Shown here: piece after piece, positions 2,430-34,921 of the stretch
How the letters are laid out: each line of letters begins with the position of its first letter
How positions within the stretch are numbered: the first letter of the stretch is position 1
Source of the DNA: Takakia lepidozioides
Lineage: Eukaryota > Plantae > Bryophyta
Length of the DNA stretch: 63,507 nt
Assembly: GCA_030704615.1 (NCBI GenBank)
Contig: CM060732.1
Coordinates: 62,494-126,000 of the forward strand
Direction: 5' to 3'
Notes under the pieces: generated by a model
Database searches by the model: none
What the model was told of the DNA's origin: nothing
What the model saw: the letters and a program-made list of their open reading frames with translations, nothing else
Translations under genes and position numbers: made by a program

Positions 2430-3017
2430 TTTGGCGACCGTACTGGGGACCTGGGACATGAACAACCAGATGTGACAGGCATCTGGTGGGATCATGGTGG
2501 TTGGACCATTAAAGAATTTGAAGTGAATCAAATTCCCTGTGGAACGAAGGAAGAAAGATTGTCCAAACAATTCTTTCAAAGGTTCTTGGAATTGCCAGAC
2601 GGATGTAAAGAAAATATTCTTAAACGAGTGCATGATGCTGATCCAGAATGGGGTCTGGAGAAAGGAGTGATAAAGATTTATCAGGTAGCCTGTAGAGGAA
2701 GAGCACGTTGGTTACCAACATTAGTTTATGTGATAGCGTTGCTATCCATTAAACGAGTAGAGTTTGAAGGCTGGGAAGAAAGAAAGGTGAATGTTTATAC
2801 TCATATGCATGAAGAGCTTGTACTGGTAAAGAATTGGATTCCAAAGGATATTTTGTGGATCAAACTCACACCAAGAACAGCTTTTCAGACTTGTTTGCCA
2901 TATGGTTATATGGTAACGGAGACTTCAAGTATAGCCAAGGGTGCATTGAAGCTTGAAAGAAATCCAGGCATATACGAGAGATATTACAGAAGAGAGTTTT
3001 GGTTATTGCCACATTAA
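2322..3017 (+). CDS. Extra ORF upstream of gag, unknown function (up to 231 aa; the true start is probably downstream of the PBS)
   Basis: Uninterrupted, non-low-complexity ORF between the LTR/PBS and gag; no family motif recognised. Confidence 0.5.
   Translation: MTDCSARAEYLEISNSSILEFPPRIAKGWVSKSRATFGDRTGDLGHEQPDVTGIWWDHGGWTIKEFEVNQIPCGTKEERLSKQFFQRFLELPDGCKENILKRVHDADPEWGLEKGVIKIYQVACRGRARWLPTLVYVIALLSIKRVEFEGWEERKVNVYTHMHEELVLVKNWIPKDILWIKLTPRTAFQTCLPYGYMVTETSSIAKGALKLERNPGIYERYYRREFWLLPH
2432..2449 (+). promoter_or_regulatory. Primer-binding site TGGCGACCGTACTGGGGA (resembles the tRNA-Arg-type PBS of Tat/Ogre elements)
   Basis: Begins with TGG, 2 nt after the LTR end. The tRNA identity is inferred from resemblance to TGGCGACTC..CTGGGGA-type PBSs. 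Confidence 0.75.
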
Positions 3018-3038
3018 AAGAAATGAAAGACATGGGAC

Positions 3039-5560: not shown

Positions 5561-5566
5561 CCAGTC

Positions 5567-6000
5567 ATGGACTTTGATGATTCTATGCCAGTAATCCAAT
5601 TGAGAATTGGAAGCACAGAACTAACTGATGTACTGATAGATGGTGGTTCTGGAGTAAATATCATGACAGACCAATTAAGGAAGAAGCTTGGTCTAAGTAA
5701 CATGAAACCAGCCCCATTTACAGTAACAATGGCAGATCAAAGAAGTGTACAGCCATTGGGATTAATAAGAGGAGTTAAGATACAGATACAGAAAATGATC
5801 TTTATGATCACAGTAACTGTATTAAAAATGGATGAAGTCATGGAGGCTTACTCCTTATTATTGGGACGTCCGTGGCTGAAACAGGCCAGGGTATTCCATG
5901 ACTGGAATTCTCAGTTACTAACTGTGCATAATGGGATGCACGAGATACAAATTACCACAAAGAAATCTAGTAGATTACCTGCTACAAGAAGACCTCGAGG
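5567..6000 (+). pseudogene. Gypsy aspartic protease
   Basis: VLIDGGSGVNIM and YSLLLGRPWL motifs. Confidence 0.92.
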
Positions 6001-6338
6001 AGTCAGAGAGTATGACTGGAGAGAGGAGGACTGGATGAGGAGCAGGAAGCTACCCTATTTGCTGCACACCCAGAGTGGGAGCAGGTTGCAGAGATGCGGC
6101 TGGAAAGCCTAAGTTGTTTGAGAGGTATCTGCTGTGGTGTAGTGACAGCAACACCAACTGAAGAAGGAAACCAGCATTTACCCATCACATTTCTATGAAG
6201 AAAGAGAAGGAGAGAAATAGAAATCCTAGAAGAACCAGCCACTGTGAGCTTACAGGATGAAGTGGTGACTGGTTGGACAATCACAGCTGATGAGCAGGTG
6301 AGAGAAGTAAATGTGGGAACTCAGGAGGAACCGAGAGG

Positions 6339-7951
6339 ATGGTGAAAGTAGGAGCTGATTTGGAGCCGGAATTCTTCGAAGAAGCTAAAAGCTTGTTCAT
6401 CAAATACAGAGATGTATTTGCTTGGAGCTATGAGGATCTAAAAGGGATACCACCTGAAGTCTGTCAGCATAAAATTGAACTGGAACCAGGGTCAGTACCA
6501 ATCAAGCAGGCGAGGTATAGAATGAATCCCAACTACGCACAGAAGGTTGGAGAAGAGATAAAGAAGTTGGCTGAGGCTAAGTTTATATACCCAATAGAGT
6601 ATACAACTTGGTTGTCACCCATTGTTATAGTTCCCAAGAAGAATGGCAAACTAAGAGTATGTGTGAACTATAAGAAGCTGAATGCTTGTACGAAGAAAGA
6701 TCCTTTCCCTTTGCCATTCACAGAAGCAGTATTAGACACTGTGGCAGGCCATGAGATGTACTCATTCATGGATGGCTTCAGTGGTTATAATCAAGTGCAA
6801 GTGGCAGAAGAAGACCAAGGGAAAACAGCTTTCATCACAGACTGGGGGGCTTATGCATACAAAGTCATGCCCTTTGGACTTTGTAATGCACCAGCGACCT
6901 TTCAGAGAGTGATAAGTGAATCTTTTCATGAGTATCTGGATGATTTCATGCAGGTATTTTGGATGATTTCAGTGTGTACAGCTCTAAGAATGAGCACTTG
7001 CATAAATTGGAGTTATGCCTGGCCAGATGCAGGATGAGAGGTCTGGGCTTGAATCCAGAGAAGTGTACTTTCTGTGTGAACTCAGGGGTGCTTCTGGGAC
7101 ACATTGTGTGTAAGAAGGGACTCCTGTGGATCCCAGGAAGACAGAGTCCATTAAAGTCTCTCCACCACCAGTGAATGTTAAGAGTTTAAGGAGATTCCTT
7201 GGGCAAACCAGTTATTACAGAAGATTTGTCAAAAGGTATGCACAAATAGCAGCACCATTGAGCAAGCTTCTGAAGAAAGATGCAGTGTTTGCATGGACAG
7301 CTGAATGTCAACAGGCGTTTGAGGAACTTACACTGTCAGTAACAACTACACCTGTGCTGATTAACCCCTCACTGGCATGTAGTATTTCATGTTCACTGCG
7401 ATGCATCAGGAGAAGCGTTGGGAGCGGTGTTAGCCCAGAATGTTACAGGGAATATAGATTCACCTGTGTACTATGCTAGCCGGTTGATGAACAGTGCTGA
7501 GAGGAACTATAGCACAACGGAAAGAGAAGCATTGGCAATGATCTATGCAGTGAAGAAATTCAGGCATTACCTATTGGGAAGAAAGTTTATGTTTTATGTG
7601 GATCACCAGGCTCTGATATATCTGGTGAACAAACCTTTGATAAGTGGAAGGATAGCGAGGTGGTTAATAATCTTGCATGAGTTTGAGTTCGAGGTTATTT
7701 ACAAGCCTGGCCGTTTGCATCTTGTGGCAGATCATTTGTCACGACTAACAACAGGAGAGGCCGCCACAGGAGTGGACGATCAGTTACCTGATGCGAGTTT
7801 ATTTGTAATGGAGGTGCAAGGAAGTGCAGATGAATGGTTAGATTGGCAGTGGCCAATCAGATACTACCTTGCTCATGGTCAGTGCCCACCTAGTTATGGT
7901 AAGGAGCAGAGGAAGAGAATGCTATCAAAGCTTTACCTTATACTATGGTAG
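6339..7951 (+). pseudogene. Reverse transcriptase and RNase H (single-base frameshifts near 6960, 7125 and 7370)
   Basis: WLSPIVIVPKKNGKLRVC, YSFMDGFSGYNQ, MPFGLCNAPATFQR, F-(L)DDFSVY, YYASRLMNSAERNYSTTEREALA, FYVDHQAL and VADHLSR. Confidence 0.95.
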
Positions 7952-9070
7952 GAAGCAGAATGTATAAGTTAGGACCTGATGGAGTACTAAAACGATGCTT
8001 GTACCACCATGAAGTAAATAAAGTCTTGGAGGAAGTTCATAAAGGAGTGGCTGGAGGTCATTTTGGAGAAGAGACTACCAGTAGAAAGATACTACTCGCA
8101 GGATACTGGTGGCCTACTTTGTTCAAAGATGTACATGAGTATTGTCAGAAGTGTGATGAATGTCAGAGGCTAGGACCTTTGCAGAGATCTGGAAGAATGG
8201 CCTTGCATCCTACAATGCCTACGGAACCATTTCAGAAATGGGGACTAGACTTTGTTGGACCAATTAATCCACCATCCAAGAATACACAAAACAGGTACAT
8301 AATTACAGCCACTGATTATACTACAAAGTGGGTGGAAGCTAAAGCTTTGAGGGACAACACAGCCAAGTCCACAGCAAGGTTCCTGTACGAGAACATACTT
8401 ACACGATTTGGATGTCCCTTAGAATTTATCAGTGATCAAGGAAGTCACTTCATGAATGAGACCATTGAGTTATTGACTAAAGAGTTTATGATTGTGCATA
8501 GAAAGAGTAAACATATTACCCACAGGGTAATGGACAGGCAGAGGCTACCAACAAAATACTATGTACTATCTTGGCTAAGATAGTCAATGCAAACAGAACG
8601 GATTGGGATACAAAGCTGCTGACAGCTTTATGGTCATACAGGACTTCATATAAAGTCACCACAAAGTATACACCATTCCAATTAGTTTATGGTATGGAAG
8701 CCTTACTTCCAGTGGAATTCCTGTTACCTACCATGAGAACGGAGTGGGGAAAAAGAATGGAATTGCAAGACTCCATCAAGGTCAGGAAACATGAATTATA
8801 CCATGTGGAAGAAGTACGTGCTGATGCAGCTGATAATATGACCAGAATTCAGATGAAGCGAAGGAACAGTTTGATGAAGGCAATTAAAGACTTTTAAAGG
8901 GGGATTTGGTTCTATGGTTGCAGAAGAAAGGAAAGATTCAAGCTTCTAAGCTTAAATCACCATGGAAAGGACCTTATGTCATACAAAAGATGTATGATAA
9001 CAACACAGCCATGTTACAAACCATTAACAAAGAAATGCTGGGAAGAGTCAATGCAAATAAGTTGAAGGGG
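7945..9070 (+). pseudogene. Integrase (HHCC, DDE core, GPY C-terminal motif)
   Basis: H...AGGHFG...GYWWPTL..CQKCDECQR, WGLDFVGP, ATDYTTKWVEA, ISDQGSHF, ALWSYRT and KLKSPWKGPY. Confidence 0.95.
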
Positions 9071-9219
9071 TACAGTGGTATCCATGACAAACCCCTGCAG
9101 CATGATTTGCATGTTGAACCGCAAGAGCAGTCACGGGCTGCACCAGTGTTACGAACGGAGTATGGAACACTTGTCGCTAGGCCCAGTATATATGACCGGG
9201 GTGGGCAAAACAAACGTGC

Positions 9220-9385
9220 CTATCACAGCCCATCACGGCGTGACACAGCCTATCACAGCCCCATCAGACACAGCCTATCACAGCCCGTCACGACGTGACA
9301 CAGCCTATCACAACCTACCGCAGCGTGTCACAGTATCACAGCTTACACAGTGACACAGCCTGTCACAGCTCAACACAGCCTACTA
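9220..9385 (+). repeat. Internal CACAGCC(TAT)-type tandem repeats just after pol
   Basis: Repeated TATCACAGCC / GACACAGCC units related to the LTR array. Confidence 0.8.
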
Positions 9386-9822
9386 AAGTTACACGATCCA
9401 TAGAATCAGTGACAAGTGGACACATAAAAACTTCAGGAAAATGGCTGGAAACGGAAATTAATTTAAAAATAGACACGTGGAGGTCAGGGTGCGACACACA
9501 GCAGAGAATGAAGTGCAAGGACAGGTGTCAAAAGAAAGAGGACAAGAACGGCCGTCAAAAGGGATGAAAGGCGGGCCCATTAATGAATACGGAAAAAGGG
9601 AAACAGACGAACGGCAAGTACAGAAAAACTGAATTCATGTCGCATGTGTGATCCTAGTGGACTATCCAACAGGGAAAGTCCACTAAAGAAGATAAAAGTT
9701 AAAATCCAGTCACAGCGGATACCAGAGAAAATGATCAAGAAAATGGAGGGAAATTAAGCGCAAGAGGCGGCGTCGTTCTGAGTAACGGGCGTCTCGACAG
9801 GACAGGCCATAAATGCTATAAC

Positions 9823-12800
9823 TTGGAAACTATGGAGGAACTAACAGACTATACGCTCGCAATATTACTTACGCAATGGCAGAGACACGAAACGAAAGAG
9901 CAGAGCTTTTCTCTTGAACAATGCTTGCAAGCCCCGCAGGCTTACAAGAGATTACCCATAGCTTTCTGCGGCAACCATACGTTTCTGCTTTGTGCACTAC
10001 AGGCATTCCTGCAGTGTTACAGCCAAAGCAGCAGTTCTGTGAGTCTAAGATGAAGAGAGTGAGAGGAATGGAGGAAATCAGGGTGAAGAGCACCACAATT
10101 CTGCAACAAACGATGGCTACCCCACAGCGATATAAAGATACTGAAGGAGCTGAGATTGGAAGGATTGCAAAGCATGGATTGGACACTACACCATAGACAG
10201 TACATGTTACAATTTTTGCAGAACTTTGAGCCAAAGACAGGAACAACAACGGTGAAGGGAGTTGAATTAATGATTACTCCCCTATACCTCCAGCAATTGT
10301 TTCGATTGCCAGCAGGTCATGTGTATGTGGAGGAACACAGGGAAAGACTGCAAATAGGGGATTTATTCCAAGAAGGGAGTTTCTTTAAAAAACTCAGGGT
10401 TATGCTGTACCAAAGCTGTGTACCCAGGGTTAAAAGACATAGGCCAAGTATTGAACGTTCTGATTGCCCTGAAACAGAACCAACAATATTTGAGCAGATC
10501 CTTCACAGAGGAAATCCTCAAAGGCTTGAAGGGACAAGAGGTACCATGGGCGGACATAATGTACAACGCACTGGTAGAGGAGATGAAAGCAGGTACTACC
10601 GCAAAATCTCCTATCATAGTGTCTGGCCCAATCATTGCTCAAATAATCCTTGATTCTGGCATACTTAATGCACAAGAAAGGAAGGAAATGGGAGTGTTTG
10701 AGCCAGAACAACTGCAATGGAAGAGCAAGGCTCTTCACACAGTGAGGGTGGACTAGCAGCACAACCCGAGACTAAGAGGCAGAGAAGGGAAAGACTGTAG
10801 TGGCGGATCCACTGGCTTCACGGATTCCGCATGATAATGTTTCCCAAGCTCATGACCAGGAAGGGGCACAGCAGCACAAAAGAATGTTATTACTGGAAGC
10901 AGGACCTTCAGAGAGGGAGGAAGAAAGTTACTTCTGCATCACAACCAACACAGCCACTTGAACGACTTGTCACAAGGTCACAAGTTATCCATGCAGCTCA
11001 ACCCGAAATAATTGATTTGGAAAGTGAAGGGATAGATATTCCAACTACAGAACAGATAGTGGCAGAAATAGAGAAAGGGGACCTTCTCTATGAATATTCT
11101 GGTCTGGTCAAGCAGACAGAAATCCCAGAGGTGCAACAGTTGCCCAAGAAATCCTGAGGTACATATAATGCACACACCTGTGTCGGAGGTACCACAGGCG
11201 GAAGGCCATGACACTGTAGCACCGGTCATAAATGAAGTAGTTCAGGAAGAAAATCCGGTGGGACAATGGTCTGAATGGTTAGTGAGACATCATACTGTTG
11301 AAGATCAAGAGGAACAGCAGCAACCTCACCATGATGACCCTCAACAGGCAATGCTGATGAGTTCCATAGGCAGGACACTTAATTTGTTGGGGACTTATGT
11401 CAAAACCCATGTTCCAATTACCCAATTGACAGCCTTGAAAGAAGAACTCAGGAAGGAGTTTGAGGCTCGACTTGCCACTGAGTGTGCAAACAAGGTCGAT
11501 GAAGAGGTCACTCTCAAGATGAAGCAGGACTTGGCCAATACAGAAATGGCTTTGCAATTGGCCAAGCAACAATTGATTGAGGCAGGCCTCGCGCAAGACC
11601 AGTTGCACGAAGCACATAAGCAACAGCTATACCAAATGCAGGTGCAGCATGAAAGCAAGTTGCAAGAACTGAATGCACTACATACGGAGTTGCAGACAGT
11701 GCATAACAGGATGGCGATACAATGCGCTACATTTACAACTATGCTTGACCAATCAACAAAAGAAACAGTCAAGCGGAAAAATGTACAGAAGAAGAGAATG
11801 TGGAGCAAATGAAGCTCATTGTCGATATGAAGAATACAATCTGTCGCAATGAAGATACTTTCAAGCAATACAGGCAGATGGAAGCTGAGCAAGAGAAATA
11901 CATCGTGGAGTTGCAACAAACCATCGTGGCCAATAGAAATGAAATCGCGGTCAGTAACAAGGCTTCGAAAGAAGCCAATAATCTACTTGCTGCCTATGCG
12001 CAATTGGTTGAGCCACAGGCGAAGCGCATGAAGGCTTTACAACAGCAGTTGGAATTGTATAAGCTAAGAGAGGAGCAAACTCTCAGGGGAACCACAAGCA
12101 GCTTGGTGGATAACAGCCTTATGCAGGTCTGGTTAGCACAAGGGCCAGTAGAAGGCAAAGCCCCACGGAAGCTCACCCAAAGAGATGAATGAGCTTAGAC
12201 TGCAGGTGCAGAACATTGCCACAACTACTATAGACAATGTCTATAGTAGGATAGCAGAGTTACAAGAGGATGTAGACGGACTCCAGACTCAAGTGGAAGA
12301 CCTCACTTCAAACATCGACCAAAGAGTCTATATCCCTCAGGAACAGCTAATGGCTTCTTATTTGCAAGCCAGAACTCTGGCTTTTCAGTCTTCACAGGAG
12401 GTGCAGGAGATGCCAATGGTACAGGAACCAGTACCACCACCACCACAACAGTCAGTGTACCAGTAGCTGAACCTGTGGTTACTACAACCCACACCACAGC
12501 CACCCACAGCCGGAGGTATGGGGCAATGCAGCTTTTAACCCACCTAAAACTCCAGCTGCCAGGGAGTACAGTAGGGCTATGATTATGCCCTTCAACCAAA
12601 TTCCCATCATGTTGGATTTGGCTTGGAAAGAATTTAGTCCTCCGCAGTCATTCGCACATTACTACCAAATCATGCGTATTTGGCTGCCAGTGGCAACCAG
12701 GACTAAAGTTCTTCCAAACAATCGACATATTGAAGATCATCACTTTGCACAATACTGGCACGAGGCAGGTACCATGTTGAGGGAATTGGTTGCTTTCCAG

Positions 12801-13577
12801 GTTGTACATGGACTCATTTATACCAAGACCAAGGAAATAGCAAGTATTGTCATGGGGTGCGGGCTATACTACGCTGCTTGTTTTCTGATACGTTACCACA
12901 TTGAGCAACAAAAGATGCAAGCACGCTTTCAAAGTTACTCCAGTGGAGATCATTGGGTATTACCTTCGGTGCCACCTCATATGTACCTATATGACCCAAA
13001 AGTATGATACAGAAGGATTCTCAAATTCGTTCATGGTTTCAAGCAGCCTGCAACAATTTGTCAACACAGAAATTCGGACTTGATGACATTTTCTATAAGG
13101 GACATATCGCATGGAAATACTTGCACGCTGCACCAGTAATGGTACCCCACTCATTTGGACAGACAAGGAGCTCAGTGTCTACACCAATTTTGCTGTTCAA
13201 CGGTTACACCAGGTTGTAAAATGCAAACTTCCAGACATGGTAGGACAGCATTGTATGCCCAGATGATTCCACAAAAAGTTCGAAAATTAAAACACCTGAG
13301 AGGCGATGAGGATTCTGATACAACTGTTTCTTCACAAAATTCTTTTGACATGGGAGAAGACTATGCAATTCAGATGAAGAGAAGAAACAAAGGGGATCTC
13401 CTATGCCGGAAAAGATTACCTCGATATCAGCCTCCAGAAGGCCTCACTTATCCAGGTAGTGATCAACCATCTCCATCAACCAGAGACAGACCTCGGGCTC
13501 GTACACACAGCCCACCACGAAACTCTCAACGTCAACAAGGTGCTCACTCACAAAGGTTTGCTACTCGGAAACAGTAA
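9823..13577 (+). pseudogene. Long sense-strand accessory ORF 3' of pol (Athila-type accessory-like N-domain, long coiled coil, aromatic-rich C-domain), broken by frameshifts
   Basis: Chain of overlapping + ORFs from 9823 to 13577. QFLQNF...TVKGVELMIT...LFRLP and WADIMYNAL..EM..GPIIAQII resemble plant retrotransposon accessory ORFs. Q/E/K/L heptad-rich region at 11400-12350. Confidence 0.7.
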
Positions 13578-13598
13578 ACCGTGAGGACACGGCTTTTT

Positions 13599-13612
13599 GA
13601 GGGGGGAAGGGG
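13599..13612 (+). promoter_or_regulatory. Polypurine tract GAGGGGGGAAGGGG
   Basis: Purine run ending 3 nt before the 3' LTR. Confidence 0.9.
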
Positions 13613-13615
13613 TAA

Positions 13616-14649
13616 TGTTAGAGGACTGTAGGGGACTTAGACACTTATACGGGATCTGTAGGGTACCCTTAATTTTTGCACAGACTGAGACAAACAGGAA
13701 CCTTAGGGGTGACAGCAGCGCACTGTAGAGGGGGGTTACATAGCCCACACAGCCGACACAGCAGTCACAGCAGCCGTCACAGCCCACACAGACACAGCCC
13801 GTCACAGTCACAGCCCACACAGCCGTCACAGCCCACACAGCCAACACAGCCCGTCACAGTCGTCACAGCCCACACCCGTCACAGCCACACAGCACAGCCA
13901 CACACAGCCCGTCACAGTCGTCACAGCCCACACAGCCCACACAGCCAGTCACAGCCCGGCACCCACACAGCAGTCACAGCCCGACACAGCCAAACAGCCA
14001 GTCACCGCTTGACACAGCTGTCACGATAATAGGGAACGAAGAGTAGGACAGGGAACGACTGTGGGGAACAACACCTGTGAAGGGAACATGTTAATTCACA
14101 TACGACGGTTAGAGAGGGAAACGGTTAGAACCGCGGATAGGAGGATAAAGGGAAAAACGGGGAATGATGAGGGATGAGGATGATTATTATGATGGGAAGG
14201 AGGATTTCGAGAGACGGGAGGGAAGTCGGTGAGCACGATGAAGGAGGAGGAAAGAGATTAGTAGATGCTTGTTATATGCAAAGCTGTAGGGATATTGTAG
14301 AGGAGAATAGAGACACAATGGCTTCGGCCTGATACCTGATAAATCATAATCTGATACTTATACGATACAATCACACTGTGTAGAGAGATCTGAGTGAAGC
14401 TGTGGATTGAATGGAGGAGTGAAGGAAACCGATAAATTGATGAAGCAAACTGATACTTAATTATCAATGGTAAGGTAGCTAAGATGAATGCGGAAAAGGA
14501 AACAAATAGGAAACACCCCCATGATACACTAGCTGTAGGTCATGACTGATTGTTCTGCGCGGGCTGAGTACTTAGAGATTTCCAACTCTTCTATCTTGGA
14601 GTTTCCGCCTCGGATAGCGAAGGGGTGGGTGAGTAAAAGCCGCGCGACA
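13616..14649 (+). repeat. 3' LTR (1034 bp)
   Basis: Direct repeat of 1343-2429; differs mainly in CACAGCC array length plus a few substitutions and indels. Confidence 0.96.
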
Positions 14650-15979
14650 GATGTCGAACCAACCCATCCTGGCTCTTATGTCTGTCGTGCCATGTCATGA
14701 GGTTAGCGATCGATTTACATCGGTACATACGTTTCAACCTTGGAATGACAGGGAAGTGTCGCAATACTTTCTTGGGCACACTTCCATGACCTGGAATGTA
14801 ACGGGAACTGCGGCACACTGGGAAAATGTCTACATTCTCATACTCCCCACGCACACACGCTCACATGCATGAATCATCGTGTACTGCAATCCCATCTTGG
14901 CAATCAAGGTTTTTGCTTCATAGTGAGTTTTCGGCAATGAATTCTCTTTAGGCAAAAAACTCTTACGCAACAATCCCAGAAGCTCATCCACAAATGCATT
15001 GGTGCACTTGTGGGTAGTGCATGCGTTCAGCAACGTCAAAGTTGCTTGCAGCCGGCTGATGGAGCACCCTTCAAAAAGTGGACATTGCGACTGTCGGAAG
15101 AGTTTATCATACTCGGGATCAACGTGCAGGTGAGCATTCTCATCAAATTCATTGTCTCCGGAATCGTCGAGATCATCGTCATGATTGGCAAATGTGTGAT
15201 CGGTTCCACCATGAATGGGGTCCTCTCTGTTTGCATCTGCAAAGAGAAACGTTTCCTGCAATGCACGCTGCATTTCTACCTCCAATCCACCACTCTCATC
15301 TGCGTTCTCTATGACATTGGGCTCCTGCTGTGCCGCAGGGCCTTCGTCTTCATCATCTGAATATTCACATCCCTGCATCCCAATAGTCATCTTGTGAGTG
15401 GACCAACAACGATGTGACACTTGTTCATATTATGACATAGGAGGCACGGTGACGTTGCAGTGATGCAGTCATATTTACGTATGTATCTTATGAATATACA
15501 CCCAATCAAAACACGACATTTGTAACCATTGAAGTCATAGTTGCAGTCACTTACTTAGTCATATATGACTACATGACTACACATGACCAATGAAAACACA
15601 ACATGTGCATTAATTAAAGTGATAATGGAAGTGGCGTAGTCATAGTCACGTCTGTATCTTATGACTTCTTGACTACAATCACCCAACGAAATGTCGACAT
15701 GTGGAGAAGATGATCGTTGCATTCAAAATTCAAACTAAAGTGCTGAAGGGAAAGTGGCGATCTTACCAGAAGAGAACAGCGTTGGAGAAGAGGATCCCTC
15801 CCGTGTATCATGTAATGATTCCTCACTGTTTCCAACAACAGTACTTTTCCTCCATGACACTCATCGCAGTTGCATAGCATTTTTGTATGCCCATTCCTTG
15901 TGGCATAAGCTTCTTCCATTCGCCATAGACGGTCATCTATTCTACGCATACGCATCCGTTCGCCACCTGCACTGTACAT
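14650..15979 (-). pseudogene. CACTA transposase, 5' part (transposase-associated C-x-C-x2-C...H domain, acidic linker, zinc finger)
   Basis: KMLCNCDECHGG...VRNHYMIHG; PLFEGC, LPKTHYEAK, IHAC, KKVLRHFPVIPRLKRMY, MTWH...DGLVRH. Removing the Gypsy element and one TSD copy restores GLVRH-PADSKAW. Confidence 0.92.
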
Positions 15980-16539
15980 GCTTTGAACGTCACCCCTTCC
16001 CTCTTTGCATGCTACGCACAGTGCATTGTCTCTAGTTTTGCACCAGCTGCCAATGTGCTATTTCTATATCTATAGTATACTATAAGTATCGTTTCTGAGT
16101 GTCCATGGTGGAGTGGAAGGTCTTCGAAGTGACAGTCCCTCTCACTGAGTACGAGAAGTTCCGAGAGCGCCGGATTGCTACCATAAAGGAGGTGGAAGCA
16201 AAGTTCAAGCAGTCGATAGATGGGTGAGTTTAGTTCCTGACTTTGGATACCCACCCACTAAACTTGCAATTTGCCTTATCCTCTAACCTTCCTACAGCGA
16301 TCATAAGCTTCATAGCACAAATGGGGGCGAGTAGCTGCGACTTGTACAAACAGAGAGGCAAACAACATGCAGTGAGTGACGATTAAGTTTGAGGAGGGTG
16401 TGTCATTAGGCGGGAGATGTCCGCCGTCATTCGTGGGCAGCCATTACGTCCTGGTAGGGTGCGGCTGTGTTTTAGCGTAGGTTTAAGAGTATTAGGGTAT
16501 GTATGCTTGCATTTGTTTGTGATTGTTTGAGAGGGAGGT

Positions 16540-17721
16540 CATGGAGGTGTTTGTGCGGGCTTGCGGGAGCGAATCGCCCTTGCAAGCCACGCGCTCCGAA
16601 GGAAAAAGCTAGGGATCAAGGTCCTGCAAGGCAAAGTGCCAGACTGAAGACGATGAAGACTACGATTCTGCATGAGGGCTCTTCTGAGGACGATGAGGAC
16701 GATCCACTCCTCCCACGCTAGTGCGAGGCGAGTGCGTCGTCGGCGGATGCCACGGCAAGCCGAGGAGAACATGCCCATGCTCATGTCGCAGGACAAAAAT
16801 GCCCATCATCTACACTACGAACACCTTCTCCGTCTGTGAGTTATAGTTCTTCACAATGACCATGATTCAAATTATGTATGTTTTTGGTAAAATCACGAAG
16901 AGATAGGGTATGTCTGTCAAGACAGGGAAGTTGGACAATGCAGGGGTCAGCCAAGGCACAATCACAAATGATTTCCACTAGACAAGTTGAAGTGCCAAAG
17001 GCATGATGTCAGGCCAATGTAGACTTCAGGTGTGTTCAAATTCTTTGCCCCATGAAACCAACGTCCTGGTACTAAGCTACAATGGCTACTTATAGAGATA
17101 CTTGGGTTACTTATGCACCCAGAATATCAGTAAAACTTGGAGGGATACTTCTCATGGACCCATCAGGTTTGTCCATTTGAATTCTTGCTATGGATTTCAG
17201 GAACACCCCATACCTAAGAGGGCTAAAAAATGTACGGGAGACATCATTGGGGCCAATCAAAAGATTTTTTTACTGCCCAAGATCATACTGAGTTTTGGGG
17301 TAATCTTGTCTTTACAAATGATATGTGCTTCCAGTTTGTTATATTGAATTCAAGGATTTGCTGCTTGCTGCCTATATGTATGTGTAATCACCCACATTGT
17401 ACTGGGGGAATTTCTTTTCAGGGCAAGCACAAGCGCACTGGATCCACGATCCCTGCTGCTAGCAATGGAGATGGCGCCCACAAGAACGCAGGAGGTGGCC
17501 CTAACTCTCCCATCGTTGTGGGTTCTGTGCCACCAGTACCCCCACCTTATTATGGTATGCCTCAGTACCCACAGTCTGGCACTCAGTATGGTCAGGGTCA
17601 TATATGGTGCTCTCCATATGGGCAGTATGGCCAGTATCCTCCTCCACCATATTTGCCACCCCCTAATAGCTATGGGGGTGGCAGGCCACCGGAATATCCT
17701 CCGGGGGCTGCTATTTCATGA
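16540..17721 (+). other. Possible spliced accessory gene inside the CACTA element with a Pro/Tyr/Gly-rich last exon
   Basis: Basic/acidic ORF at 16503-16721; acceptor-like TTCTTTTCAG at 17412-17421 followed by a PPPYYG..PPPPYLPPP exon. No family motif. Confidence 0.3.
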
Positions 17722-18164
17722 GCCATGAGCCATGAGCGGCATGAGCCATGAGCAGAGTCGTAAGTGTGGAAAAAAACATGAGCAGCACTATTTTCCGGAA
17801 ATGAGTGTCCGCGGGAATAGGGTTTAGGGTGCCACGGTCATAGGGGGAGAAGGACCTCCCGATGAAGGAGGTTCGACAATGTTATTTAGAATTATATATT
17901 GAAAGGCAATGTTTCGCGAATGGTAGGGTGGTACTGCTCTGTACAATGGGGGCCCATTTCAGCCTACCAGCCACTTGCAAAATCCACCCACACTCCCAAT
18001 CCCAAACGAAATGAGCAATGACGCATTCTGGGAACGATGGACACAGAATAGAATAAAAGAGGGCACAATGAGGTTTTTATTGATCCACATGAATTGCATT
18101 TGAAGCACGTCTACTGTGCTGATTGTGCAATCAAATCTTTAGCCCTGTGCCTACTGAATACAAG

Positions 18165-18745
18165 TCACGTTGTCAATGGGACTTCGACTGCTCTCAGAAC
18201 TAGCTCATGAGTCATGGGGCTCCTCCATGTAAAGTCGATTGCAGCCGTTGTACCGCCCCTAGTGATGTTCACCACAATGTCCTGCCCTTCAATCATACCA
18301 CCATCAAATATGGAAATCTTCACGTTTTCGTCGTCCACACCAATGCGAATGTCCCCATACAATGGAGAAGAGGAGCGCACTCCTTGAGGAGAATAGGTCT
18401 CTCCGATGGAGTCCACCCACGTCCAGTGGCAGCAGTTCCACCGCAACAGCATAGCAGTGCGCCTTCTTCTGCATGGGTGACCGTCGTAGCTGGGAAAATC
18501 GGAATCGAGGATGCGCAGGAGCCACGGACTCCTCAGACCAAGATCGTCACCCCGCTCGAAGGCGTAGTGGCCTAGGATATACTCAAAAGCCACCAATGTT
18601 TCCACAATCGAACCAGTATCTTCTCTGTAATCTGTGTACCAGATAACAATGTCTCCGATGTGGCCGAATACATTGCATAATCGATGCCTCCAAATGGGCA
18701 GTCGTCCCGGTTCCGGAAGCACGTCATCCTTGCAAAGGAGGACCT
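18165..18745 (-). CDS. Unknown protein of about 190 aa, paralog A, inside the CACTA element
   Basis: Open frame; colinear similarity to 19265-19823; AATAAA on the minus strand at 18076-18081. Confidence 0.65.
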
Positions 18746-19264
18746 GAGGACGACTTGGATGCAGATGACAATGACCTTGCGGACAGCTACGAAGCCCTTA
18801 GATTTTGGAAATGATAGCGCAAGAGCAGTCCGGCCTCCAATAATGGAGCATCTGGGTCCCACGTACCCACCGACGGAGGTGGAACGTGTTCATCACGCCG
18901 GCGGTGGATGAACCCATACATCTTTCTCATCAACAAGTTATAGTTTGAGATCTGCCACCGAAGTCCATCCCCCCGGATGGAAATTCGGCGCCGCATTTAC
19001 ATCGAAGAGGGGATGGACTTCGTCGTGTCCAGTGGCTATCGGCCCACCTGGCAGTGAGTGCCCATAGTTTGCATGGCAGGGTAGGAAACTGAAACGGCTA
19101 CATTCATGAAGCAGCCAATCTTCATCGGTCCAGGATCTGTAGGGGGGAAAATTTAAATGTGCCCTGGAGTGTTTGTGAGGAATTGCAGCGTTAGCTTGAA
19201 CTTTTTCCAGCCACCGCGCTGCTCCTCCTCCATCCGGGAGCTGCTGTCATTGAGCGTACTCCGC

Positions 19265-19823
19265 TACTCTTTTTCAAGGATGCCGTGCCGCCGAAATCTA
19301 GCCGACTGCCCTTATCATGGCCACGATTATGCTATGTTCAAACCAGAATCAGGGACATCATTGTCTGGCTCTTTGTTTTCACAGACGCTGCTGGAATCAA
19401 GCAAGAGTCTTTGCGCGCAATGGAGTATCTGGAGGGCTATTACCGCTTTGAGCGAGGTGAGGGCGAGGGTCAATGCGGTCCGTGGGTCCTGAAAAATTGT
19501 TGACCTGATATACCAAGCTGGAAAGGGATGCCGGACAGATCACGCACGGCCTCGCTTTGGCGCTGAACTGCTGCCAGTGGACCAGGGAGGACACCGGGGA
19601 AAACTATATACGTGCAGATCACTCCGCTCTTCCAGTGTATGGAGACATTCGGCTGAGTTGCGAAGACGAATCGCACGGGCACATGAGGCCCACAATGACC
19701 TTGTCAATGTATGATGGTGGTATCATTGATGGACATGACATTGTCGTTGGCTCCAGCAAGGGCAGCAGAACGACCGAATTGCAGTTTTTCGAGGTGCCCG
19801 CAGCAGTGATGAGCTTGTTTTGA
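19265..19823 (+). CDS. Unknown protein of about 185 aa, paralog B (one frameshift in an A-run near 19495)
   Basis: Shares RLP...RLC.V...I.DI..W, EY..G.Y.FERG, PW.L, NCC.WT, P.YGDIR and S..DGG.I.G.DIVV with paralog A; AATAAA at 19922-19927. Confidence 0.6.
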
Positions 19824-20109
19824 GGGGTATCGAAGTTCCGTCGACTTGGTGAAGCCCATGTAGAAGGAGGAAGGGCTTAGTTTTGTCTGCAGTTGGTAAA
19901 TGTGAGACATCGTGTCCGATCAATAAACCCATCGTACCTCACTTCTGTATGATTGTGTTTCATTCTGTTGAATAACTGTCGGAATTGGCCCACTGTTTAC
20001 AATTTGATGTCTCATTTCTACAATGTGTCTGTCCGGATGAATATAGCAGAGTAACCGGTATGTGAGTCATGTGTCAAGAATATATACCAGAGTAACGCCA
20101 TGTCGGACA

Positions 20110-20603
20110 TTGAAATGCGGCACCGCATTTCCATGTCGGACAAGGAAATGCGGTGCGTGCCGAATTTCCATGCCGACATGGAAATGTATGAACCGCATTT
20201 CAGTGTCGGACAATAAAATGCGGTGCATCATTTCCGTCCAGGTACACGAAATACCAACACGGGTCTATAAATTGGATAGACAACGAGGTTGGCATTGCAA
20301 ATGCGGCGACGCATTTCCAGCTTGGCAATGGAAACTTCTTTTTGGACAAGGGAATGCGGTGCCGCATTTCCGTCCAACACTTCAAAAAGTGTGACATTTC
20401 CGACCAGCGCGATGGAATGCGTTACCGCATTCCGTGAGAGGGTCTGCAAATGGACAAATTGCGATGTCCGTTCTGGAAATGCGGCGCCGCATTTCCATGT
20501 CCGTCATCGACTTTTTTTTTACAATGGAATGCGGTGCCGTTGCCAATTTTGTGATGGGCTGCAGTTCGAACAACGACCATCCCCAATATGGAAATGCGGC
20601 ACT
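20110..20603. repeat. CACTA subterminal array of palindromic GGAAATGCGGYRCCGCATTTCC motifs (about 10 copies)
   Basis: Copies near 20112, 20144, 20180, 20214, 20297, 20350, 20414, 20475, 20526 and 20590. Confidence 0.85.
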
Positions 20604-22000
20604 GTAGTGTGAATGCAGGGGAGTAACATGGAAATTTTGCTTGGCATCAGGATCCGGCATTACTACAAAGGGAGTGCCCGGGTACTAATAACGGGAGGGA
20701 ACTATCCATGCCTACAGGTAATTCCATGGGCACACTATGCTATTGCTCTGCCAGGACAAAATGTGGCTAAGTCATGAAATACGCCTTTTCATCCATAGGA
20801 TGAATGGCTTTCATCGCTGGTGATTACCGTAGAAACGCGGGGGTCGAGGAAGCTTAGGGCTTGCTGGGAGGTAATCGTGCAGGGAACAGCTAGGTAATTT
20901 TGCTCAAGCCAGGAGAAGGGAGGCGGTGCAGGACGATTCATCAAGGGCAAGGGGAAGTAATATCATGTACTACTGACAGAAGTAATGAAGCATAGAGGCG
21001 GTGCTTCCTGTGATTTGACCGCTGAAGGTGTAGGAGTTGCGGGGAAAGCAGCTCGGTGGAGGGGCAGCAGTGCCGTCGTTACTCTCATAACCACGATGAC
21101 AAGGAGGATGAACCTGCAAGGGAAACAACCTGCTGCCAGGGAATAGGAAGGTGGGGTTGCAGACTTGATCAAAGGCTAGTTAAGATGATAGAGCAGCTCC
21201 ATCATGACGGGCATCTGCCAGAGGTAGGGTGTGCAAACTGATACCGCTGCCATTGCATTCATGTGCAATTATAGGAAAGCTGCACTTGTGGAGAAGCAAT
21301 TGCTGCCAGATCAAGGGGCAGAGATGGGATTACTGACTTGACCACTTGTGAAATGGTGCAATCGCCAGAATGAGGGCATTGGCTTGTGGACAGTGATACA
21401 GGTTATCTGTAAATAAAGAAGCAAAGAGTGAAATATGTAGAGCATGAAGCTTTCAGATAATGACTGTCTTCTTGTTATCACATCAGATCTTAGGGTAGAT
21501 TAGCAGAGATGGTAGGATAGGGTAGTTAGTTGGCAAGCAACAAGGTTACTGCCATAGGTTGAAACAACAGAGCTGTCAAGACTCACGGAACGCTTGAATC
21601 GACGAAATATCTGAAGGTGGAGTGGCATAGCAATGACAGGATCTGACATGCATAGATCTTTGTTTTTACAACGTGGCATTCAAACGACAAAAGGAGTTAG
21701 GGGAGCTGCTGACAGAGATGGTGAGGTGCCATTTCAGGCAGGCGATCCCACCGCTTCAGCTGGAGAGTATAAGAGAGCTAAGTTCATAGATGCAAGGCCC
21801 CTCTCTGACTTAGGGATAGTTGCTATGGAATTTCGCTAGAGAGACTCTCAATAGAGATGAGGGAGATAGAAAAAGATTTTTTGGCAAATGGAATGGTGAC
21901 TTCTGGAATTCATACCAGTCCTGGAGGTAGAGAGGAAAGTGAGTAGGGTGGAAGTTGTGTGGAGTGCTGCAAGAAGTTGGGAAGTCAGCTCTCAAACATA

Positions 22001-22500
22001 NNNNNNNNNNNNNNNNNNNNNNNNNNNNNNNNNNNNNNNNNNNNNNNNNNNNNNNNNNNNNNNNNNNNNNNNNNNNNNNNNNNNNNNNNNNNNNNNNNNN
22101 NNNNNNNNNNNNNNNNNNNNNNNNNNNNNNNNNNNNNNNNNNNNNNNNNNNNNNNNNNNNNNNNNNNNNNNNNNNNNNNNNNNNNNNNNNNNNNNNNNNN
22201 NNNNNNNNNNNNNNNNNNNNNNNNNNNNNNNNNNNNNNNNNNNNNNNNNNNNNNNNNNNNNNNNNNNNNNNNNNNNNNNNNNNNNNNNNNNNNNNNNNNN
22301 NNNNNNNNNNNNNNNNNNNNNNNNNNNNNNNNNNNNNNNNNNNNNNNNNNNNNNNNNNNNNNNNNNNNNNNNNNNNNNNNNNNNNNNNNNNNNNNNNNNN
22401 NNNNNNNNNNNNNNNNNNNNNNNNNNNNNNNNNNNNNNNNNNNNNNNNNNNNNNNNNNNNNNNNNNNNNNNNNNNNNNNNNNNNNNNNNNNNNNNNNNNN
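22001..22500. other. Assembly gap (500 N)
   Basis: Run of N. Confidence 1.
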
Positions 22501-23246
22501 TGGAAGTGTACTCCGTACTCTGCGTTGGCTCAGCCATAGCCAAGCTGATAATCCAAGTCAAGCAGTTGAGATCCATTATTTGCCCCAACACCTGACGACG
22601 TGATGCCTCAGAAAGAGATGGCACCGCCGTGGTACCAGTGGTGAAACCCATCGCCCGTTCGCGCTCGTCAGCATTGGGGCTCCACTAACTGCTGCAACTG
22701 GCTATCCCTTATAGGCCAGGTCCACCATCCTGGAAAACATGAGATCCTGGAAAGCTGAGCAGTGTAGGCAATGCTGCTCGTGGGTGACCCACCTTATTGA
22801 CCACTGCCAAAGGTGATCGGTCATCGTGTCTCACACGCTGAGACTGCCTCTCTATGTCCAAAATGTTATCCAACGTGAGGTTTGGTGGCCGCTGCACCCC
22901 CATCAAATGCACGCTTGAGTAGTGCAGGTGGCATCAAGTTGGTCCACCATAGTCGTGGGCGATGAGCCCGTGACCCCACTGCAGCTGCATCCAGCAACAT
23001 TGCTGACCCAAGCCAAGACCGCACTTGATGTACACTGGCCATCACCTTGGCCCAAGAATCACCCATCAATGGCATATTCTCCAAGATATATGCCGGAGAG
23101 TCTGTCTACTAAAGCTGTAAATAGCGCAAGACCCTCAACATCTCCCAAAACAGGCGTGACCTTGAGTCTTGTAACCCATTGCCATACCCGGCTGATGAAT
23201 GCCCTTGGCAGGGCCAACCTGCCACTACCAAGTGAATAGGGCCAAT
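22501..23246 (-). pseudogene. C5 cytosine DNA methyltransferase, C-terminal half (motifs IV-X), DNMT3-like
   Basis: IGPIHLVVAGWPCQGHSSAG (catalytic PC at 23208-23213), GLQDSRSRLFWEMLRVL, YILENMP, LLDAAAVGSRAHRPRLWWTNL, ERERAMGFTTGTT and RRQVLGQIMDLNCLTWI. Contains stops and frameshifts. Confidence 0.9.
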
Positions 23247-27835: not shown

Positions 27836-29376
27836 CATAGATGAAAGACAACTTGGCTATTGTGGCCGTGACTCATTCTTCATCTTCATCTTCATCTTCA
27901 TGACGAACAGAGCATGTGCCAACGCTGCATTGTTCATCTTCATCATGAACATTGCAGCGTTGGCACATGCTCTGTTCGTCACCTTCCTCTCTAGGAAAGC
28001 AAACAATAGCAAGACTCCAATGCAATCTGCACTCAGAAATCAGAACCCTCTATCTATTGAGGGCGCTGACTGCGCACTGTAAGCCTTTCCACGCGTGCCT
28101 GGGGGAACAGTCGGCCCCCACAGAACAAACACCCAGCGGTGTCAATGCACCCAGCAGAAAACCAAGCTTGTGCAACACTTGACAAGTGCAGAATAGGCCC
28201 TGCAAATTAACAGTTCAGACATTATTGGAAAATGCCAACACTTACTTCTATCTTTTCAAATCCCGGACAACTTTGGCAAACAACAATCCAAAGCAGAAAC
28301 CACAATAACTTCTGTCTTATCTATCCATCATAGATACGTATCTCATAATAGGCAGATGCATCTCCCTCCACTTTAAAATGCTACTTCTGAAGAAAATCAT
28401 CTGTAGAGACATTATATATACTATATATTATACAAATAGGCTTCCAGCAACAAATAAATAGCAAGAACAGCGTGTTACTAACTTGTCATGAATTGGGACG
28501 AATAGATAGTCCTTCTCAAATATGTTGGACCCTTTTGTCCACTTCCTCAACTTCAAAAAGCCACCACCACCCTTCTTTTTCAGGTCAGGACAAAATCACA
28601 TAAGAACTTCTTGTGACTAAGCATATCACTCTGTCACATCATATCAACCACTACAAACACTCATCTATATCCAGTGACATAACTTTCACAGCTTATCCTG
28701 ATACAAGTTCTCCATCAAAGCCATTATACTTTGACAAAAAGTTGAACCACAAATCACCTGCTCGTTGCTGAGCGGCAACAATGTCGACAAGCAAAATATA
28801 TACCTAGATGTCAATCAGCTGGTTACTGACCTCTACACAAAAACCTCAAATCCTCTACGTTTCAAAGCCCAAAATAAACCATGTGCATGAGTTGAAACAA
28901 GATTAAGAAATGTTTGAATAAGCACAAGGCGCTGCCCAGCTACTACTTCACTCAGTTTCTTGTAGAAGTTGTTGAAGAAATGGAATCGTTTTTTCTGTCC
29001 CAAACCACGGGCTTCTGGTCTCTGAATGTACCTACGACAGTCAGGTTATATACACATTAGTTAATGAAATCTGAAAGAAAATCTCCCATTGAACCTCAAA
29101 GCAACACTTTCCATTCTTTAAACAAAAGTGCCAATGGTTACCATCTACCACCATGATGGGTTACAGAAATATCAACCTCCACATGACCATCCACTCATCT
29201 CGAACTTTCAGTCCTGAAGACAATTTGTTTGCCGGAGTAAGCAAAAAGTTGATACCAGCTGTTGAACTTTGGCCCACAGAATGGCTACCGTACTTGATGT
29301 AGAAGTCACTCATTGAAGCATTCAAATACTCCATTGTAGGTCCGAGTAGAGAACTTCAACTACCTCCGGATCATCC
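27836..29376 (-). pseudogene. Host-type ULP1/OTS-like SUMO protease (Peptidase C48) pseudogene; exons at about 29294-29376, 28926-29031, 28483-28580 and 27836-28026
   Basis: Spliced translation: DDPEVVEVLYSDLQ..EYLNASMSDFYIK|YIQRPE..RFHFFNNFYKKL|FLKLRKWTKGSNIFEKDYLFVPIHDK|LHWSLAIVCFP. Frameshift in the first exon, one mutated acceptor, and no catalytic-Cys exon found. Confidence 0.88.
27901..27981. repeat. Near-perfect hairpin (37-bp arms, 1 mismatch, 7-nt loop) with adjacent (CTTCAT)n inside the ULP1 exon
   Basis: TGACGAACAGAGCATGTGCCAACGCTGCATTGTTCAT / ATGAACATTGCAGCGTTGGCACATGCTCTGTTCGTCA. Confidence 0.95.
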
Positions 29377-32225: not shown

Positions 32226-34147
32226 GTGGATCTGCCGCTCGCCAACGGTCCAGATTGACCGGTCGCTCGCGCCATGCCATGTAGTGCGGCGTGGGTGCGC
32301 CACGTGTCCATCATTACCGGGTCCTGCAGCGGGTATATAAGGGCCCAAAGCCCTATGAGGTCTCACTTGACCTCATTCCCGCGCGCGTTGTTATGGGGGC
32401 TTGGAGGCACCGCATTCATTGCCCAGGACCACACACGCACTAGGGGTCGGGTTGTAGGGAGAAGTTTTTGAAATGTTTTTGTGTGATTTACGTGCGTGCA
32501 ATGTCAGAATCCACGTCGAACAAAATGGTCGGAAGCTCCTCTAGAAGTAGGGGCAGGGGCAATAAAAAGAAGCACAGGAGCCAGCGTAATAGCAATCTTC
32601 ACAAAGAAGATTATCCTGGACCGAATGCGTTGAAGTTGGTGAGGGAGGTGGTGCGCGACTACTTCATGAAAACGGACCATGCGCACTTGCACAGTTCGTA
32701 CGTTTTCTACGGCCACGAAGGGTTCCTGAAGTTCTAGAATAATATGGGGAGAATAATGCGGGTGGCTATGGTAGGGGAGGAGTGGGCCGAGGACAGGATG
32801 AAACTGAAATTCAATGAATGGAGAGTCGGGCATAAGATGCGACGCGGAACACGAAGCAACTCGTGGAAACAGTTGTTAAGAGAACAACTACAGGACGACC
32901 ACCATCTTCGGAAACAAATATCCACCCCATCTCTGGTACCCCAGGATACCCCTCGGTACCCTAGGTACCCAGAGGTACCTCATACCCCCGATTACTTGGT
33001 GTCCCCTGGACACCTGTCATATTTATATATGGCCCACCCTCGAAAGGGGGCAATAGCCACAAGGCGAAGTGACTCTTAGTTACGCCGGCCTCGGCCGGCG
33101 TCTTCTTTCTCTCTCTCTTGGTTCATTCCCTAACCAACCTCTCGTGCCACCTCTTACACATGGAGAACTTCCCGAAGCCGGTGCACAAGTTGAGGAACAC
33201 AACACAAAGCAGATGATGATGAGGGCATTCAAGACCCGTTGTATCTTCTTACACAGATACATAATTGTCTCTCAACATTGTTGTAACATGATGTTATTAT
33301 ACTATAATCTTGTGTCGGTGTCATGTTGTAGTATAAACAGTCTTTGGTATATATATTCAACAGCATAACATGCTATTAGACCGTGTGCATGCCGGGGTAT
33401 TCCATGTCCACAATGACCATTTAATATCCTCGTGGAGGAGTTTCATGCATTGATACGTCACTCACAAGTTCGTTGATTTGGCATACTGTATGGAAGCAGG
33501 AAGCAGCAGCAATCCGGGATATGGCATATGAAGTTGCCAAGGATCATTTTAAAGAGATGGAGCGCCGGTATTTGCTGCATTTGACATTGACAATGGAGTG
33601 TAGAGAGGCATCAATGTTTCAAGGAGGAATCCGAGCTTATTTCGAGCTAGTTGGCGTACAAGCAACAACAGAGAGACAAGTGGCCGCTTCATTTATATTG
33701 GGAGTGATGGTTGAACAATAGTTATGGCTCAAGGATGAGTGCAATATGAGGCTCAATCGTTTTGAACTTCGCATACCATTTATTAATTCTTTATTTGGCA
33801 ATAAAAGTGGACTTTTGGCCATCATTGCCTTGGTGCATGTACGAACGTTGATTGAGCTGTCATTTACCACTACATGTCCGATTCATGTGCCATGTTCATA
33901 TGTCTTGACATTCCCAACCTGACAAGGGCAGCCTAAGGCCCCCCCACACCCATCCCAACCAAAAATCCCTTGGCAACATACTGAATTGGGAGGACTTTCC
34001 AACCTCCAAAATGCTATGCAAATTAAAAGAGCGAGACTCAATGGGAGTGGCCACCACCCGCATGACCATCTTTCATGCACTGTGGATATAAGCTCACAAT
34101 GACAAAGAATACCTCTACTTGTGTTTGAAACATGGAGTTGACTTTCA

Positions 34148-34392
34148 GGTGATACCTCTGTAACGATGTAGGGTACGACTGACAGACCTCCGTTGCTATA
34201 TGAGACAGAGATTACATTGTTGGGTGATACCTCTGTACAGATGTAGGCTTTGACGGGCATACTATACATCTATTCGTGTATGCAACATGGATTATATTTT
34301 AAGGTGATACCTCTATCACGATATAGGTTGCGAGTGGCAGACTATACCTCTATAGGTATACGAATGTAGATTTTAGGGTACCACCTCTGCAA
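34148..34392 (+). repeat. Degenerate tandem repeats with GGTGATACCTCT / GACTATACCTCT cores; a second cluster lies at about 37935-38170
   Basis: The motif recurs several times in both clusters. Confidence 0.6.
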
Positions 34393-34921
34393 AGACAGTC
34401 GCAGTGAATGGCAGACTACACGTCAGCCTCATATCCTGTTCCTACTTCACCTTCGCCCGTCTTTCGTGTGTATCGTTCCACGACAACTTTCCTTATGTTA
34501 CATGTATGTGGAAAATGGACGTGGACGATACAAACGCACCTAGCATGTTGCGATGAGTATGCTTGTCAACGAATTATGTTATAGCTATGCAGGCCCGGGA
34601 ACGTGCCAACATAGAAGAGTCACGTCTACAGGCCTACTCGCATAAATATAACGTAATTCGTTCAGAGGCAAATTAATCACGAAATGCAAGGTACGTTTCT
34701 CTCGCCACATCCACTTTGATGGCCGATTCGGCGACGAAATAACATCTCATGACAGTTTCTCCTGAGGGTGGATACACCAGTATTCTCGGTGCAGACATGA
34801 ACGTTCGCACTGACAAGTGCTAGGACTGTTAGTTAAAACGGTTAGACAACCAAGTTGTGCTCATTAAGACAGGCCGCAATTGTGTTGTTTCGGAACAATG
34901 CAACCCATTGCACATGGCTGA

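Follow-up and report, generated by a model that had tools for sequence, protein, structure and literature searches.

Two-component transposons of the En/Spm type (maize En/Spm, Tam1, soybean Tgmt*, Arabidopsis Spm1/Spm3) are the closest described systems to the locus examined here, with which they have in common a Tnp2 transposase (PF02992) and a reiterated subterminal motif. In En/Spm, the TnpA protein binds the subterminal repeats and regulates the element (PMC2613891), and the Arabidopsis TnpA is described as binding clustered motifs, demethylating the termini and activating the genes of the element (bioRxiv 10.64898/2026.08.24.746577). According to the same preprint, in which mosses, ferns and head-to-head genes were looked for by term and are not mentioned, TnpA-like proteins bear tandem HTH motifs and are apparently confined to flowering plants, and Spm elements also carry various unrelated accessory proteins. 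For TnpA and TnpD, encoding either through splicing or by genes in head-to-tail order is reported, and VANC is described as a dicot-specific, MAIN-like protein (PMC13547354). The capture of sequence by Pack-CACTA elements has been reviewed (PMC13317346), MURB is reported to bind MURA, and an identifiable domain is given for only 52.3% of the non-transposase proteins of active plant TIR elements (PMC12973397), with further general context in PMC9033089. An accessory pair duplicated in mirror image was not described in the literature searched, subscription journals, repeat databases and supplements lying outside that search.

Within the 63,507-nt stretch of DNA analyzed here (the window), we observed a pair of paralogous genes arranged head to head as mirror images of each other. 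This pair, which was first described in a sequence-based first-pass annotation, is a real feature of the locus, and several details of that description needed correction. The features to which the text below refers are the following, with coordinates given in the window:

1 to 1342, minus strand: continuation of the transposase gene (Transposase_21/tnp2, PF02992), which runs off the window
1343 to 14649, plus strand: LTR retrotransposon inside the transposase, with the TSD GATGT
14650 to 16057, minus strand: 5' part of the Tnp2-type transposase gene, with a weak Transpos_assoc match (E 0.02, below the cut-off)
16105 to 17721, plus strand: gene X, a decayed multi-exon candidate with a GTGAGT donor near 16225
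17703 to 20602, no strand: high-depth segment holding the pair and the subterminal array, with a summed contig depth far above that of 15900-17702
18076 to 18081, minus strand: AATAAA of the left gene, 84 nt past its stop
18165 to 18727, minus strand: conserved core of the left paralog, from the shared Met at 18727 to the TGA at 18167-18165
18959 to 19022, no strand: imperfect palindrome at the center, about which the pair is symmetric, with a motif copy at 18980-18999
19013 to 19053, plus strand: candidate first exon of the right gene, with an ATG at 19013, a GTGAGT donor at 19054 and phase 2
19173 to 19933, plus strand: stretch missing from a deletion variant that lacks the entire right gene (joint 19172>19934)
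19280 to 19852, plus strand: conserved core of the right paralog, from the shared Met at 19280 to the TGA at 19850-19852
19922 to 19927, plus strand: AATAAA of the right gene, 70 nt past the homologous stop
20097 to 20602, no strand: subterminal array of the palindromic motif GAAATGCGGNNCCGCATTTC, with four copies at up to 2 mismatches and six at up to 3
20603 to 20660, no strand: start of another abundant repeat (TGTAGTG...), presumably LTR-like from its TG start

The transposase matches PF02992 over 547-1344 on the minus strand (E 1.1e-73) and has 180 relatives at E<=1e-60, among the best 120 of which the closest are 55-60% identical and that of the liverwort Riccia sorocarpa is 53% identical, a likeness that would hint, weakly, at a non-flowering host. 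As the LTR element splits the transposase, the copy of the CACTA element in the window is dead. Gene X is located between the transposase and the pair, head to head with the former; its last exon is Pro/Tyr/Gly-rich and contains a repeat whose length differs among copies (joint 17702>17617 in X5, one of the public runs introduced below). No family was found for gene X in Pfam, and it is a candidate for the motif-binding factor of the element. The annotated position of the pair holds, with the PF02992 transposase to its left and the palindromic subterminal repeats to its right. Its assignment to a CACTA element is sustained by the Tnp2 transposase and the reiterated subterminal motif, whereas the terminal TAGTG is ambiguous. 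This TAGTG (20605-20609), a possible CACTA terminus, overlaps the other repeat that starts at 20603, so that the CACTA TIR is not secure, and the other end of the element lies outside the window. The boundary is visible in contigs of the runs X8 and X14, which begin to fit at 20603, and in one X5 contig, which ends at 20602. From 20603 on, the X8 and X14 contigs (presumed RNA runs) fit the repeat at a depth of 300-750 and then diverge.

The homology of the two arm ORF regions was evident at the protein level (BLASTP E 2e-18 and 4e-17; tblastn E 6e-29) and in the DNA alignment of the two arms, which scored 435 in comparison with 24 +/- 16 for 30 shuffles; these results agree with the earlier description of two paralogous genes head to head. 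The DNA of the paralogs has diverged, as had been stated, and is nonetheless still alignable, at ~70% identity in three blocks. The pair as a whole is a decayed palindrome of 1.9 kb, with a single copy of the subterminal motif at its center. The two AATAAA signals are confirmed and sit in a 10-nt GATCAATAAA common to the left and right arms, and of the interval of ~85-100 nt after each stop that had been given for them, the left value is close, at 84 nt, and the right one falls to 70 nt once the homologous stop is used. With N placed at the indel sites, the cores become stop-free over 187 codons in the left gene, where the single frameshift at 18654/18655 has to be read through, and over 192 codons in the right gene. 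The left frame stays open 5' of the shared Met 18727.

In the window, both genes are broken, the left one by one frameshift and the right one by a stop and several frameshifts. The right ORF had been placed at 19265-19823; it is not intact in the window, where it has a TGA at 19501-19503 and indels at 19353, 19492, 19506, 19564, 19591 (3 nt), 19788 and 19797, and its homologous tail (DELVLRGIEVPST vs HELVLRAVEVPLT) sits in a different frame, which extends to the TGA at 19850-19852, so that this TGA and not 19823 is the homologous end. Of fifteen public runs listed, 11 contain part of the stretch in question, and evidence on other copies came from the contigs of seven of them (X1, X5, X6, X8, X9, X10 and X14), for which indel tables were drawn up from the best-supported rows. 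An extra base after 18654 in the left gene was present in contigs of X1, X5, X8, X10 and X6. In the right gene, the contigs of X1, X5 and X6 together exhibited +1 at 19353, -1 at 19492, +1 at 19506, +1 at 19564, +3 at 19591, +2 at 19788 and -1 at 19797. The contig indels of X1, X5, X6, X8 and X10 abolish the stop and the frameshifts in both genes, and in the commonest contig forms both frames are open over ~190 codons. The indels in the window may be mutations or assembly errors.

These indels also bear on the N-terminal block, in which the match KDDVLPEPGRLP/KDAVPPKSSRLP had been put forward as part of the conserved protein. This match turned out to be an off-frame shadow of a 73% DNA identity over 83 nt. 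It reaches 12/28 identities and a BLOSUM score of 45 and was rejected against the neighboring frame, LRSSFARMTCFRNRDDCPFGGIDYAMY/LRYSFSRMPCRRNLADCPYHGHDYAMF, with 17/27 identities and a BLOSUM score of 91. The mismatches by codon position in this short block (6/8/9 vs 10/7/9) do not by themselves decide the frame; we prefer LRSSFARMTCFRNRDDCPFGGIDYAMY/LRYSFSRMPCRRNLADCPYHGHDYAMF because the extra bases after 18654 and 19353 join it to the rest of each ORF. Further upstream, the right frame has an in-frame ATG at 19157, and splicing of the candidate exon at 19013-19053 to the AG at 19277-19278, a pyrimidine-rich acceptor, would keep the frame. The left gene has a matching acceptor-like sequence but lacks a GT where the corresponding donor would lie, and its frame is open back to the center with the indels of X6 and X10 (-6 at 18763, +4 at 18815).

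Selection on the encoded protein had been deduced from its conservation, and the comparison of the two paralogs upholds this. Among the 179 codon pairs without N in the cores, 85 conserve an identical residue, and we obtained a dS of 0.75, a dN of 0.44 and an omega of 0.585, which lies below 1 (bootstrap 0.39-0.86; P(omega>=1) = 0.002) and is unchanged at 0.585 after masking 8 window-private sites. The mismatches are distributed over the three codon positions as 55/57/84 (chi-square p 0.018), and 26/40 four-fold sites differ vs 57/179 second positions. The shifted control frames and two of the three antisense ones gave omega values of 1.28-1.63; the in-register antisense frame gave 0.5, but it contains 17 stops. 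The paralog protein was thus under purifying selection of moderate strength, and the duplication that gave rise to the pair is old, with a signal that is silent on whether the transposon was the setting of this constraint. Of the 23 differences that separate the window from one X8 contig of 477 nt, the 21 listed comprise 5 synonymous and 16 nonsynonymous changes, for 115 synonymous and 352 nonsynonymous sites, 3 of the 16 nonsynonymous changes being upstream of the shared Met. These differences look near-neutral, as expected for inserted copies, and give no sign of current selection.

The center of the pair had not been described in the first-pass annotation. Perfect arms of 14 nt, reading GGGGATGGACTTCG on each strand, flank the motif copy at 18980-18999, and the palindrome folds with a z of -4.6 (0/200 shuffles). 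This copy has 2 mismatches to the motif GAAATGCGGNNCCGCATTTC, which at up to 2 mismatches occurs 21 times in the window vs 0.00 expected by chance: 4 copies lie at 20112-20495, 16 at 34978-35948, and the one at 18980-18999 stands alone as the sole copy in the window outside the two subterminal arrays. The hairpin is centered on 18990, and position 19003 lies halfway between the two Met codons. Apart from the 14-nt arms, the spacer aligns poorly between the two arms of the pair. At a neutral identity of ~53%, a perfect 14-mer would have a probability of 0.53^14 = 1.4e-4, a rough figure that applies to one chosen position. With a neutral chance in the order of 1e-4, the center has been kept either by constraint or by hairpin homogenization. 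Contigs of X5 and X6 carry the center next to different flanking sequence, their loose ends being at 18970, 18971 and 19002, and the central palindrome of the pair thus also occurs in further contexts. Judged from its sequence, the symmetric center fits a shared bidirectional control region.

The segment that holds the pair is repeated. In X1, the summed contig depth, which is not a copy number, rises from 560-1,660 over 15900-17648 to about 7,000-23,000 over 17649-20510, and in X5 it amounts to 33-43 on the transposase side vs about 120-450 over the pair segment. The run X6, with 1.75 million letters of contigs, covers 30/30 bins of 17650-20000, a full coverage that would be expected for a high-copy repeat in a shallow run. 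The step in depth falls at 17703, shortly before gene X ends, and the contigs show several different left neighbors there; this combination suggests that most pair copies are unattached to this transposase subfamily at an identity of at least 80%. The pair and the transposase are continuous in the window, no contig spans the whole stretch, and the link of the pair to this particular transposase is shown in this window only. A deletion variant without the entire right gene was detected through the joint 19172>19934 in X1 (5 contigs), X6 and X9, and the X1 depth of the right gene is about half that of the left gene. Moreover, a second CACTA relic in the window (34900-40700) has the same motif and a related transposase, and a search of it for the pair came up empty (best E 0.13). 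Given the deletion variant and the relic without the pair, the pair is not universal: it is a widespread yet non-obligatory part of motif-bearing elements.

Some contigs match the pair only in part. One X8 contig (3215 nt, depth 78) and one X14 contig (1046 nt, depth 92) end in right-gene-like pieces (19452-19550) and run on into other sequence, as would be expected if the copy had diverged or if a fragment had become lodged in a different transcript or locus. X9 and X10, which are labeled as two other organisms, contain parts of the spacer and the left gene (18569-19238) at ~96-99% identity. For these pieces, close relatives and carry-over are indistinguishable; X9 also holds the deletion joint.

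The encoded protein has no recognized family, as had been stated. A profile search of 1,835,955,588 representatives produced 0 matches at E<=0.001, word-seeded protein searches, Pfam and PDB sequences gave none, and the searches of viral, prokaryote and metagenome DNA yielded no homolog, the single locus matched there being a chance peptide match. The match to an ordinary host family that had been named as evidence against the proposal was looked for in the protein collections, and none was found. AlphaFold2 models of the C-terminal 162 residues, which leave aside the N-terminal ~25 residues, are of low confidence (pLDDT 37.6 and 42.2). Both models contain a C-terminal beta meander, to which the second adds a helix at residues 14-34, and fold searches with them gave nothing above background. 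A lead to CrtC/Svf1 lipocalin-like barrels, obtained in the ESM Atlas at 0.78-0.82, is at chance level, as shuffled proteins score this high in a third of cases; the right-gene piece did not repeat the match, and Pfam had none for this lead at E<=10. The cores are net acidic (27 D/E vs 17 K/R and 28 D/E vs 21 K/R), with six Trp each and four Cys common to both paralogs, a composition that would suit a module for protein contacts more than one that binds DNA. The role in anti-silencing or motif binding that had been suggested for the pair draws no support from the acidic cores, the low-confidence models, which are beta-rich and not of the helix-turn-helix type, and the absence of a VANC or TnpA match.

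In comparison with the described systems, the locus resembles En/Spm in having non-transposase accessory genes within the element and a motif copy in the likely promoter region. The En/Spm TnpA is reported as a spliced isoform or a head-to-tail 3' gene with tandem HTH (PMC13547354; bioRxiv 10.64898/2026.08.24.746577), whereas the pair consists of two short, opposed paralogs upstream of the transposase, acidic and predicted to be beta-rich, without similarity to TnpA. The pair has one gene per strand, and gene X stands between it and the transposase, an arrangement that differs from the isoform or head-to-tail encoding of TnpA. With VANC of the VANDAL elements (Mutator-like), the pair has in common an element-borne, fast-evolving accessory gene and a short repeated motif in non-coding DNA; unlike VANC, it belongs to another superfamily, its adjacent transposase being Tnp2 and not VANDAL/Mutator-like, and VANC/MAIN-like sequence gave no match to the pair protein in PDB chains or Pfam. 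MuDR belongs to the Mutator superfamily, and its MURB is a single gene in a convergent layout, unlike the pair. MURB of maize MuDR is similar to the pair in being a small accessory protein of orphan type, encoded opposite to the transposase strand and described as a protein-contact helper (PMC12973397). As in Pack-CACTA elements, a non-transposase coding sequence lies between putative CACTA ends in many copies; Pack-CACTA elements carry identifiable host gene fragments, whereas no donor was found for the pair in the protein collections searched, and in the pair two whole ORFs diverged under selection about the motif of the element. By analogy, the pair would work like the accessory gene of a two-component TIR element, a likeness that stops short of identity with TnpA or VANC.

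We lean toward the reading, in our view a somewhat probable one, that the two genes are old, selected orphan paralogs of ~190 aa in mirror arrangement about the element's motif, which are likely accessory genes of the CACTA element and are probably co-activated through the central motif. A single accessory gene 3' of a motif-bearing promoter would have been duplicated by fold-back or by an aberrant transposition centered on the motif, and the center would have stayed symmetric as a shared control site read both ways, by analogy with Spm elements, whose motif-bearing promoters are bound and activated by TnpA-type factors. The DNA-binding protein of the element itself may occupy the central motif, such that both genes are switched on together. 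The acidic, Cys/Trp-bearing and predicted beta-rich product would act by protein contacts and not by binding the motif, with transposition helper or silencing antagonist as its candidate role, and it presumably acts in trans, so that individual copies could decay or lose one gene. It is unlikely that the pair instead goes back to Pack-CACTA capture, in which a lineage-specific host gene or gene pair was picked up, its selection signal dating from its time in the host and the transposon copies being passengers. For a captured host pair, symmetry about a motif that belongs to the element would not be expected; the contig forms seen most often have two open frames, and the searched plant and other proteins hold no homolog, at a sensitivity sufficient for a 40%-identical relative. 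A donor could be invisible, however, since host proteins seem to be missing from the searched collections, where the closest transposases are 55-60% identical; CACTA elements are reported to take up genomic sequence (PMC13317346), and the recent copies differ in a near-neutral manner.

The near-neutral differences to one other copy would also agree, together with the broken window copy, with a formerly selected and now dispensable pair, carried by a non-autonomous derivative of high copy number for which the subterminal array is sufficient, but neutral drift after insertion is expected of any copy and is no measure of selection on the master lineage. The variant without the right gene, the X1 right-gene depth of ~half that of the left gene and the depth step at 17703 point in the same direction, whereas the commonest contigs keep both ~190-codon frames open and both poly(A) signals persist in a homologous context, and we regard this reading as quite unlikely. 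Very unlikely is the proposal that the pair proteins are themselves the motif binders, standing in for TnpA or VANC, in which case the two would form a heterodimer on a site of two-fold symmetry and thereby control their own promoter. Against it, both cores have a net acidic composition, Pfam and PDB sequence gave no HTH, TnpA or VANC match, gene X or the N-terminus of the transposase are equally good candidates, and the right gene can be lost. This proposal is favored by the palindromic motif at the shared center of the pair, by the four Cys conserved between the paralogs and, if the host is non-flowering, by a vacant role, as TnpA-like proteins are reported to be restricted to flowering plants (PMC13547354; bioRxiv 10.64898/2026.08.24.746577). 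A bolder reading of the locus, which we hold to be unlikely, is that a non-flowering CACTA lineage without the classical TnpA evolved a new counter-silencing or transposition family, unrelated to TnpA and VANC and mirror-doubled into two subunits on a motif-centered bidirectional promoter, which would constitute a self-activating switch.

Under the favored reading of co-activated accessory genes, the interest of the locus lies in that the known plant transposon regulators TnpA and VANC come from flowering plants, and the pair, as a selected orphan family in the CACTA elements of another lineage, would be a concrete candidate for a separately evolved answer to silencing by the host or to the control of transposition. 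It also represents a clear case of a gene pair arising by inverted duplication within a transposon, and its mirror layout leaves the motif, the promoter and the two small proteins all open to assay. Caution is called for, since plant TIR elements often carry orphan accessory ORFs.

The remainder of the window reads as repeat-rich plant DNA with PPR gene fragments and LTR elements. The LTR retrotransposon at 1343-14649 looks complete, with LTRs ~94% identical that contain ACAGC-rich tandem repeats, and has a long, coiled-coil-like extra ORF region 3' of the integrase (about 9700-13577). The CpG observed/expected ratio is 0.85-0.87 in the pair genes, 1.2 in the subterminal array and 0.31 inside the LTR element (3000-13000); the higher values in the pair and the array may mean less methylation-driven decay, a comparison confounded by age and coding constraint. 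The second CACTA relic (34900-40700) is more decayed, with its transposase on the plus strand and 16 motif copies spaced regularly, 53 nt apart; an ACTAGTG near 35016-35025 may be its terminus. Isolated long hairpins resembling MITE-like insertions were found at 40143-40246, where the hairpin interrupts the second transposase, and at 27901-27981 and 38791-38867. Finally, a second family of repeated motifs (GGTGATACCTCT...), with a spacing of ~75-80 nt, occurs at 34109-34425 and 37933-38170, flanking the array at 34920-36120.
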